This document shows positions 1 to 1,727 of a DNA stretch of 1,727 nt, piece by piece. The translations under genes and the position numbers were made by a program. Below the pieces are notes generated by a model. That model was not told where the DNA came from. It saw nothing but the letters and a program-made list of their open reading frames with translations, and made no database searches. The number at the start of each line of letters is the position of its first letter. Positions within the stretch are counted from its first letter, which is position 1. Source of the stretch: Escherichia coli (lineage in GTDB: Bacteria; Pseudomonadota; Gammaproteobacteria; Enterobacterales; Enterobacteriaceae); NCBI RefSeq assembly GCF_003334815.1, contig NZ_QOWO01000094.1; one strand, written 5' to 3'.

Positions 1-1727
1 CTATGACAACCGTGGCCGGTTAACCTCGGTGAAAGACGCACAGGGCCGTGAAACGCGGTATGAATACAACGCCGCAGGCGACCTGACTGCCGTTATCACC
101 CCGGACGGCAACCGGAGCGAGACACAGTACGATGCGTGGGGAAAGGCGGTCAGCACCACGCAGGGCGGGCTGACGCGCAGTATGGAGTACGATGCTGCCG
201 GACGTGTCATCAGCCTGACCAACGAGAACGGCAGCCACAGCGTCTTCAGTTACGATGCGCTGGACCGGCTGGTACAGCAGGGCGGCTTTGACGGGCGGAC
301 GCAACGTTATCATTATGACCTGACCGGAAAACTCACACAGAGTGAGGATGAGGGACTTGTCATCCTCTGGTACTACGATGAATCGGACCGTATCACTCAC
401 CGCACGGTGAACGGCGAACCGGCAGAGCAGTGGCAGTATGATGAGCACGGGTGGTTAACCACCCTCAGCCATACCAGTGAAGGCCACCGCGTGTCGGTCC
501 ACTACGGCTATGACGATAAAGGCCGCCTGACCGGCGAATGCCAGACGGTGGAGAACCCGGAGACGGGGGAACTGCTGTGGCAGCATGAGACCGGACATGC
601 GTACAACGAACAGGGGCTGGCAAACCGCGTCACGCCGGACAGTCTGCCGCCGGTGGAGTGGCTGACCTACGGCAGCGGCTATCTTGCGGGCATGAAGCTG
701 GGCGGGACGCCGCTGCTGGAGTTCACGCGCGACCGCCTGCACCGTGAGACGGTGCGCAGCTTCGGCAGCATGGCAGGCAGTAATGCCGCATATAAACTGA
801 CCAGCACATACACCCCCGCAGGCCAGTTACAGAGCCAGCACCTGAACAGCCTGGTGTATGACCGTGACTACGGGTGGAATGACAACGGCGACCTGGTGCG
901 CATCAGCGGCCCGCGACAGACGCGGGAATACGGCTACAGCGCCACGGGCAGGCTGGAGAGTGTGCGCACCCTCGCACCAGACCTGGACATCCGCATCCCG
1001 TATGCCACGGACCCGGCGGGCAACCGGCTGCCGGACCCGGAGCTGCACCCGGACAGTACACTCACAGTGTGGCCGGATAACCGCATCGCGGAGGATGCGC
1101 ACTATGTCTACCGCCACGATGAATACGGCAGGCTGACGGAGAAGACGGACCGCATCCCGGCGGGTGTGATACGGACGGACGACGAGCGGACCCACCACTA
1201 CCACTACGACAGCCAGCACCGCCTGGTGTTCTACACGCGGATACAGCATGGCGAGCCACTGGTCGAGAGCCGCTACCTCTACGACCCGCTGGGACGGCGA
1301 ATGGCAAAACGGGTCTGGCGGCGGGAGCGTGACCTGACGGGGTGGATGTCGCTGTCGCGTAAACCGGAGGTGACGTGGTATGGCTGGGACGGAGACAGGC
1401 TGACGACGGTGCAGACTGACACCACACGTATCCAGACGGTATACGAGCCGGGAAGCTTCACGCCGCTCATCCGGGTCGAGACAGAGAACGGCGAGCGGGA
1501 AAAAGCGCAGCGGCGCAGCCTGGCAGAGACGCTCCAGCAGGAAGGGAGTGAGAACGGCCACGGCGTGGTGTTCCCGGCTGAACTGGTGCGGCTGCTGGAC
1601 AGGCTGGAGGAAGAAATCCGGGCAGACCGCGTGAGCAGTGAAAGCCGGGCGTGGCTTGCGCAGTGCGGGCTGACGGTGGAGCAACTGGCCAGACAGGTGG
1701 AGCCGGAATACACACCGGCGCGAAAAG
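1..1727 (+). CDS. Rhs-family YD-repeat protein, internal core fragment (partial at both ends; reading phase has the first complete codon at nt 2, last complete codon ends at nt 1726). Polymorphic toxin shell/core region; the toxin tip is not in the window.
   Basis: Seen in sequence: the frame starting at nt 2 is open across the entire window (575 codons, no stop), which is why it is missing from a stop-to-stop/ATG-based ORF track. The translation begins [50 protein letters not shown]... and contains repeated xxGxxxRYxYDxxGRL(I/T) units, e.g. [79 protein letters not shown]. Established knowledge: this is the Rhs/YD-repeat signature, and the protein closely matches the E. coli Rhs core as I remember it. 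The paralog (rhsA/B/C/D-type) cannot be assigned from memory, so the symbol is left empty. Confidence 0.95.

Follow-up and report, generated by a model that had tools for sequence, protein, structure and literature searches.

The Rhs core gene and its locus

The stretch of DNA analysed here (1,727 nucleotides of Escherichia coli, called the window throughout) is the middle of an Rhs core gene of the RhsE/RhsD type. Frame 2 of the forward strand is the sole frame free of stops and stays open at both ends over 575 codons, and the five remaining frames hold 3-28 stops each. The window corresponds to residues 579-1153 of a gene of 1407 amino acids at the rhsE locus of E. coli W60, and positions 20001-21727 of that locus (L001) are 99.88% identical to it. 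Against the NCBIfam profile NF041261 (RHS_core, 1261 positions), the window covers positions 583-1156 with 1261 bits, under the cut-off of 2000 bits only because it is a fragment; the near-identical full W60 gene scores 2770 bits over profile positions 1-1261. The profile match agrees with the preliminary description of this DNA, which had taken it for part of an Rhs core gene. Repeats were recognised in three stretches by NCBIfam TIGR01643 (YD_repeat_2x) and in four stretches by Pfam PF05593 (RHS repeat) at E ≤ 0.001, together with more weak ones (Table 1). We found no DNA-level tandem repeats in the window, and its dispersed repeats of 14-24 nt reflect the YD motifs only faintly; Rfam families were absent from both strands of the window, as were Chi sites from the window.

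Table 1. Features of the window (positions 1-1727) and the codons singled out in the preliminary description
Feature	Position	Strand	Basis or remark
Partial ORF, internal part of Rhs core (RhsD/E subfamily)	2..1726	+	Only open frame; identity; NCBIfam RHS_core
YD (RHS) repeat cluster, residues 1-37, 43-78, 63-100 and 146-178	2..535	+	PF05593, TIGR01643; weaker repeats further downstream
Two nonsynonymous sites at which the window alone departs from its closest E. coli copies	539..583	+	Sequence comparison
CGA, Arg	914..916	+	Previously placed at 912
AGG, Arg, in GGC-AGG-CTG (G-R-L), YD-repeat motif	950..952	+	Previously placed at 949
AGG, Arg, in GGC-AGG-CTG (G-R-L)	1130..1132	+	Previously placed at 1129
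ATA, Ile	1169..1171	+	Previously placed at 1167; ATC in RhsA, B and C
ATA, Ile	1241..1243	+	Previously placed at 1240; ACA (Thr) in RhsA, B and C
CGA, Arg, remaining two	start 1298, 1721	+	Previously placed at 1297 and 1720
AGG, Arg, in GAC-AGG-CTG (D-R-L)	1397..1399	+	Previously placed at 1396
AGG, Arg, in GAC-AGG-CTG (D-R-L)	1601..1603	+	Previously placed at 1600

In W60, the gene lies directly 3' of vgrG (TIGR03361, 624 bits for the encoded VgrG), between yncH and ydcD, which is the rhsE locus, and genes for ISAs1-family transposases follow just 3' of the rhs gene. The Rhs-associated core (DPxGL) domain is found at residues 1181-1258 (TIGR03696), and an AT-rich variable tip comes next. The W60 locus is a mosaic of GC content, with 55.6% in vgrG, 63.9% in the core, 40.9% in the toxin tip and 27.4% in ydcD, and GC3 breaks sharply at the boundary of core and tip, from 0.77 to 0.31. 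Rhs genes have been described as a "genetic composite" of a G+C-rich core and an A+T-rich extension (PMC2935791). The RhsD/RhsE subfamily to which the window belongs, known from the Hill laboratory and included in clade I as defined by Jackson et al. (2009; PMC2935791), likewise combines a G+C-rich core with an A+T-rich tip, and a small gene follows downstream.

The K-12 rhsE pseudogene is 99.84% identical to the window over nt 455-1727, but it is truncated at the 5' end and has no vgrG, whereas the W60 gene is intact with vgrG on its 5' side; the chromosomal site, yncH ... ydcD, is the same in both strains. Two substitutions set the window apart from both of them: at nt 539 the window has T where the close copies have C (Cys instead of Arg, codon 180), and at nt 583 it has G where they have C (Gln instead of His, codon 194). 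The identity to K-12 rhsD is 97.5%. RhsA, RhsB and RhsC belong to the same family and share the architecture, at about 78.5% nucleotide and 78% amino-acid identity to the window (dS ~0.75, dN/dS ~0.17), and their homologous region has a GC of 61.6-62.0% and a slightly lower GC3 of 0.74-0.75.

Among proteins of solved structure, the closest relatives are Tse5 of Pseudomonas aeruginosa (8cp6, E = 2.7e-123) and RhsA of P. protegens (7q97, E = 5e-88), both with a homologous YD-repeat shell. The N-terminal and toxin domains of these two proteins differ from those of the present gene, and their hosts are of high GC, such that a GC-rich core is no anomaly there. In these two T6SS effectors, the C-terminal toxin is enclosed by the YD repeats, which fold into a closed beta-sheet cocoon; an aspartyl-protease plug releases the toxin, and the PAAR-like N-terminus is carried on the VgrG spike, on which delivery depends (PMC10684867). 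By homology to 8cp6 and 7q97, the same cocoon fold and enclosure of a toxin are predicted for the gene in the window. Its core would thus encode a YD-repeat beta-sheet shell around the variable C-terminal toxin, with delivery by the VgrG spike, and the window itself would encode part of the shell wall only.

Base composition of the window

The GC content of the window is 63.3% (1093/1727), slightly more than the roughly 60% that had been estimated by eye, and the values at the three codon positions are 65.4, 46.4 and 77.9% (GC1, GC2 and GC3). The 22 native flanking genes, pooled, have a GC of 51.6% and a GC3 of 55.2%. When ~70 kb of native E. coli sequence was cut into 39 chunks of 1727 bp, their mean GC was 50.0 (sd 3.6) and none exceeded 55.3%, which places the window at z = 3.7; its GC3 lies 3.1 sd above that of 45 native genes. 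The dinucleotide signature distance (delta*) of the window is 0.159, compared with 0.069 +/- 0.019 and a maximum of 0.117 for the native chunks, and its Karlin codon distance (B) is 0.60, where long native genes have a median of 0.28. Thus, the earlier impression that this DNA is unlike its surroundings holds by GC, GC3, Karlin distance and dinucleotide signature, all of them outside the native range, and the compositional anomaly of the window against the E. coli chromosome of ~51% GC is real. By the Karlin distance, only tufA and fusA are equally remote, in another direction. The effective number of codons (Nc) is 34.6 for the window and 49.3 for the flanks, and the favoured codons, ending in G or C or in a purine, include CGG, ACG, GCA and GGA. 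Purines make up 57.3% of the coding strand, compared with 50.9%.

Could the protein alone impose this composition on its gene? In a YD-repeat shell, Gly, Arg, Asp, Thr and Tyr abound while Phe, Ile, Lys and Met are scarce, and GC-rich, T-poor DNA could be the by-product of such a protein. In agreement with this, the window exceeds the flanking genes in Arg (9.7% vs 5.0% of residues) and Thr (9.2% vs 5.4%) and falls below them in Ile (2.4% vs 5.8%) and Phe (1.2% vs 4.8%), its GC1 and GC2 are raised over the flank values of 0.581 and 0.416, and T makes up 13.6% of its bases compared with 24.8%. However, native codon usage would give this protein a gene of 54.7% GC and not 63.3%, and the gap is widest at the synonymous third positions (0.779 vs 0.552). 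As the full cause, amino-acid composition was ruled out: it accounts for ~3 of the 11.7 GC points, roughly a quarter, and the rest is synonymous choice. That the anomaly is at bottom a property of the protein is therefore scarcely credible to us.

The codon adaptation index (CAI) behaves differently from these measures. With weights taken from 30 MG1655 genes for ribosomal proteins and elongation factors, the CAI is 0.368 for the window and 0.370 for the 22 pooled flanking genes (range 0.28-0.49). A value typical of native genes had been named beforehand as evidence against a foreign gene, and this is the value we obtained; yet by CAI this gene and native genes of weak expression cannot be told apart. 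For this type of foreignness, CAI is the wrong tool, whereas GC3, the codon-usage distance and the dinucleotide signature work.

Codon usage

The preliminary description pointed to AGG, ATA, CGA and many CGG codons as rare in enterobacterial core genes. All the codons it listed are present in frame, although every coordinate given was 1-2 nt too low (Table 1). We compared the share of each codon within its own amino acid between the window and the 22 flanking native genes. CGG, with 20 occurrences in the window, takes 36% of Arg compared with 10% in the flanks (p = 5e-6), so that for this codon the atypical choice was borne out. The same cannot be said of the other three in the window: AGG takes 7.1% of Arg compared with 3.0% (p = 0.13, not significant), CGA is not enriched (5.4% vs 8.1%, p = 0.6), and ATA is used for 2/14 Ile compared with 7.5% in the flanks (p = 0.3, not significant). 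The high count of AGG per kilobase is partly explained by Arg being twice as common in this protein. The genuine Ile anomaly is the absence of ATT, which serves for 0/14 Ile in the window and for 51% in the flanks (p = 1e-4).

Over the whole core of 1258 codons and after correction for GC3, there is a modest over-use of AGG (10 vs 4.6 expected) and ATA (5 vs 1.6). A model in which native codon usage receives a uniform boost of GC3 was rejected (chi2 = 156, df 40); what is left after the boost is a preference for the purine-ending codons CGG, GCA, ACA, GGA, AGG and ATA over CGC, ACC, GCC, TCC and GGT. The residual codon excess rests on small counts, and the bulk GC signal acts neutrally.

The AGG codons of the window are confined to (G/D)-R-L repeat motifs, where they occur as AGG-CTG. 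Those at 950 and 1130 are kept as AGG in RhsA, RhsB, RhsC and RhsD and in both E. albertii copies, that is, across a dS of ~0.75. At the equivalents of the AGG at 1397, RhsA and RhsB have CGG, RhsC has CGC, and the E. albertii copies L005 and L003 have CGA and CGG, respectively. One might imagine that the codon dialect is partly held by selection, either for translational pauses that would aid the folding of the shell or through DNA-level constraints from recombination between copies, but we consider this most unlikely.

Distribution and age of the GC-rich core

A megablast search against 5,426 complete E. coli genomes found a match to the window in 3872 (71%); the median number of matching places in a genome was six. 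The best of these matches, led by W60, are 99.9% identical and none reaches 100%; the enterobacterial host that had been supposed from the similarity of the protein is thus established by near-identity to E. coli chromosomes. In a protein search, the best 120 matches listed were nearly all from E. coli, apart from a few from Shigella and a single plasmid entry from Klebsiella. GC is 58-64% and GC3 is 0.69-0.80 in all the clade-I relatives found, which come from E. albertii, Enterobacter, Citrobacter and Pseudocitrobacter.

This distribution bears on whether the GC-rich core is the sign of a young genomic island, acquired horizontally by the strain or its lineage in recent times. The patchy presence of the core is in line with such an event, kdpA being matched in 5424/5426 of the same genomes, and so are the variability of the rhsE locus (intact in W60, truncated and without vgrG in K-12), the transposase genes next to the W60 gene and the core fragments of Pseudocitrobacter faecalis, which are 86-91% identical to the window. 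Island finders based on composition also call the RHS genes of Escherichia fairly recent transfers (PMC3195076).

The divergence of the cores tells otherwise. In E. albertii, the locus L005 is colinear with kdpA-kdpF-ybfA-rhsC of K-12, at 92.1% identity over 6.3 kb. Between the two species, the rhsC core has a dS of 0.252 and the adjacent kdpA one of 0.257, and the core has a GC of ~61% and a GC3 of ~0.71 in both; the equality of the two dS values indicates vertical inheritance since the split of E. coli and E. albertii, a result whose scope is the rhsC locus rather than the window's own rhsE locus. The D/E-like copy of E. albertii (L003) stands further off, at a dS of 0.54, and the sequences on either side of it have no match in the flanks of E. 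coli rhsE. The D/E and A/B/C subfamilies, separated by the dS and dN/dS given above for RhsA/B/C, are both GC-rich and both established in E. coli, and the chromosomal site of the rhsE gene is common to K-12 and W60. Jackson et al. regarded several rhs loci as older than E. coli and clade I as pre-dating that species (PMC2935791). The GC-rich composition is therefore old and predates the split of E. coli and E. albertii, and a recent acquisition of the core appears very unlikely. The horizontal origin put forward in the preliminary description is contradicted by the co-divergence at rhsC insofar as "foreign" was to mean recently arrived; the part of it that stands concerns the GC3 of the core, treated below.

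Direction of the change in GC

We then asked in which direction the composition of the core is moving. For 14 E. coli copies of the D/E type, whose identity to the window is 93-100%, biallelic sites were polarised with E. albertii L003 as the outgroup, and kdpA from 11 E. coli strains, with the E. albertii orthologue as the outgroup, served as the control. At third positions, S>W changes outnumber W>S changes by 79 : 33 in the Rhs core and by 48 : 39 in kdpA (Fisher p = 0.027), in a test that has one control gene, relies on single-outgroup parsimony in base-skewed sequence and takes its copies from an identity band. The Rhs ratio is 47 : 12 when two outgroups agree and 37 : 10 in the strictest outgroup set. 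The implied equilibrium GC3 is 0.60 for both the Rhs core and kdpA, whereas the current values are 0.78 and 0.65; a per-site conversion by hand of the strict-outgroup counts gives 0.47 for Rhs. With all positions included, the implied equilibria are 0.43 for Rhs and 0.44 for kdpA. As the equilibrium is the same as that of kdpA and the current GC3 is higher, the Rhs core appears to be under the ordinary E. coli regime and to be losing GC.

A net excess of S>W was seen on nearly every branch tested, the larger samples among them, two small branches, K-12 rhsD (11 : 10) and E. albertii L003 (23 : 33), being the exceptions. A first, small comparison, of RhsE and RhsD only, had been balanced (16 : 14); the equilibrium it suggested was overturned by the sample of 14 copies. 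Changes between G and C at third positions number 31 in the Rhs set and 7 in the control, an excess that suggests that some of the Rhs "polymorphisms" may be imports from diverged paralogues. There is a net loss of GC from the Rhs core.

These data also speak to a second way of accounting for the composition, in which the GC is actively kept high, either because gene conversion among the paralogous cores (5-9 in a genome) is GC-biased or because selection acts on the DNA or mRNA; if so, the composition would be uninformative on origin. Conversion is plausible, given the median of six places per genome and the dS of 0.017 between RhsA and RhsB at different loci. High GC is found in every clade-I host sampled, two AGG codons are kept across the distance between the subfamilies, and derived alleles are at higher frequency in the W>S than in the S>W class (0.53 vs 0.34). 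But kdpA has a like skew (0.44 vs 0.27), such that the skew is not specific to Rhs, and the equilibrium GC3 of the Rhs core, by either estimate, is not above that of kdpA and is far under 0.78, with the S>W excess extending over nearly all branches. No sign of a special force maintaining GC, such as biased conversion among paralogues, was seen in the polymorphism test. Active maintenance thus seems very improbable.

Origin of the anomaly

We believe it likely that the GC anomaly of the window is the legacy of an ancient acquisition from a source of higher GC, now slowly ameliorating. The GC3 of 0.78 stands above the equilibrium of the core itself (0.60 or 0.47), as predicted for such a legacy, and in this respect the proposal of a horizontal origin holds. 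The lineage of the core would have entered Escherichia from a background of higher GC before E. coli and E. albertii separated; afterwards, it would have been inherited mostly vertically, with copying between loci, and it would now be drifting to the composition of the host under a regime of mutation and fixation like that of native genes, a process known as amelioration. We infer a foreign source of higher GC, bearing in mind that composition alone cannot prove transfer. From a two-state decay with an equilibrium of 0.60 and a starting GC3 ≤ 0.95, we obtained a rough estimate of residence of up to a per-lineage dS of ~0.3-0.5, which would be older than the split from E. albertii (0.13 per lineage) and at most roughly the divergence of Escherichia and Salmonella.

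The G+C-rich core, the A+T-rich tip and the outside origin of Rhs elements are already known, have been documented since the 1990s and form the standard account of these elements (PMC2935791); Wang, Zhao and Hill (1998), cited there, reportedly described the two compositional parts and the entry of the elements from outside the species. Composition is not treated by Poole et al. 2011 (PMC3150448).

Lawrence and Ochman are said to have described the amelioration of compositionally atypical genes acquired horizontally. The Rhs core shares with ameliorating acquired genes a GC3, a codon distance and a dinucleotide signature outside the native range, as well as the flux from GC to AT. Atypical genes of E. 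coli are mostly AT-rich and young. The Rhs core differs from these in being GC-rich, present in multiple copies and older than the split from E. albertii, with a CAI not below that of its neighbours. A strong compositional anomaly can thus outlast the age of a species, and it is a poor marker of recent transfer.

A search of genome contigs returned 13 loci, all of them from enterobacterial relatives or misbinned, and three were misbinned contigs of E. coli type. The atypical composition of Rhs cores, along with their repeats, leads to the misassignment of short Rhs contigs to unrelated metagenome bins.

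Codon choice and strand composition

AGG codons in the window are tied to a protein motif. In all four cases CTG follows AGG directly on the 3' side, each within a (G/D)-R-L repeat motif (see table). AGG encodes 4 of the 11 arginines in Arg-Leu dipeptides versus none of the remaining 45 Arg codons (hypergeometric p ~ 0.0009, calculated by hand from the codon counts). Those at 950 and 1130 are likewise AGG in all of RhsA-D and the two E. albertii copies, and over the full core 6 of 10 AGG codons have the G/D-R-L context.

The coding strand is strongly purine-loaded and T-poor (+ strand, 1-1727: 57.3% purine, 13.6% T), with an AT skew of +0.12 to +0.33 across all 200-nt windows. 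Codon positions 1 and 2 account for most of the purine loading and T depletion, and the bias is therefore due mostly to the hydrophilic YD-repeat protein. On the opposite strand, the frame holding a 285-aa antisense ORF contains only three stops, and no gene is annotated opposite this ORF in W60. Several further antisense ORFs of 120-144 aa are also present in the window. Such antisense ORFs are the expected by-product of a coding strand that is rich in GC at third codon positions (GC3) and poor in T.

Features located in the window
Feature	Position (nt)	Strand	Context
AGG-CTG codon pair	950-955		(G/D)-R-L repeat motif
AGG-CTG codon pair	1130-1135		(G/D)-R-L repeat motif
AGG-CTG codon pair	1397-1402		(G/D)-R-L repeat motif
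AGG-CTG codon pair	1601-1606		(G/D)-R-L repeat motif
Antisense ORF, 285 aa	827-1684	minus	

Divergence and variation of the Rhs cores

A positional orthologue of rhsC adjoins kdpA in E. albertii, as seen when its locus (L005, 6392-12715) was compared with the K-12 rhsC region (L018, 1-6324). Between the two species dS is equal in the rhsC core and in the flanking kdpA (0.252 vs 0.257), whereas dN is twofold higher in the core (0.043 vs 0.021) and peaks in its middle third at 0.071. Among 14 E. coli copies of the RhsD/RhsE subfamily (D/E-type), aligned over the window region, nucleotide diversity is 0.046 compared with 0.031 for kdpA, and third-position G<->C transversion differences are in excess, numbering 31 versus 7. 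Both the excess and the higher diversity are compatible with a shuffling of variants from diverged paralogous cores into these copies, as opposed to the separate origin of each variant.

The window carries two private nonsynonymous differences relative to W60 and K-12 rhsE, namely Arg to Cys in codon 180 (nt 539) and His to Gln in codon 194 (nt 583). None of the matches listed from 5,426 complete E. coli genomes was 100% identical to it, the best reaching 99.9%, and therefore the source strain appears to lie outside that collection.

The rhsE locus and relatives in other genera

Comparison of the rhsE locus in K-12 (L017, 3891-5939) and W60 (L001, 16093-22491) revealed that K-12 rhsE is a 5'-truncated pseudogene, its start corresponding to nt 455 of the window, and that vgrG is absent there, whereas at the matching site W60 has an intact vgrG-rhs pair, downstream of which lie ydcD, here frameshifted, and two transposase genes of the ISAs1 family.

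Core fragments of Pseudocitrobacter faecalis (L011, L012, and L013) share 86-91% DNA identity with the window and are nearer to it than is the D/E-like copy of E. albertii, at 81%; this closeness hints that D/E-type cores may have been exchanged between genera. A search of genome contigs also recovered E. coli-type Rhs cores on short contigs (2.6-3.6 kb) placed in metagenome-assembled genomes that bear the names Lentisphaerae, Akkermansia muciniphila, and Collinsella (L004, L007, and L008; 95, 81, and 80% identity to the window, respectively), which are almost certainly misbinned E. coli contigs, repeat-collapsed and compositionally atypical.
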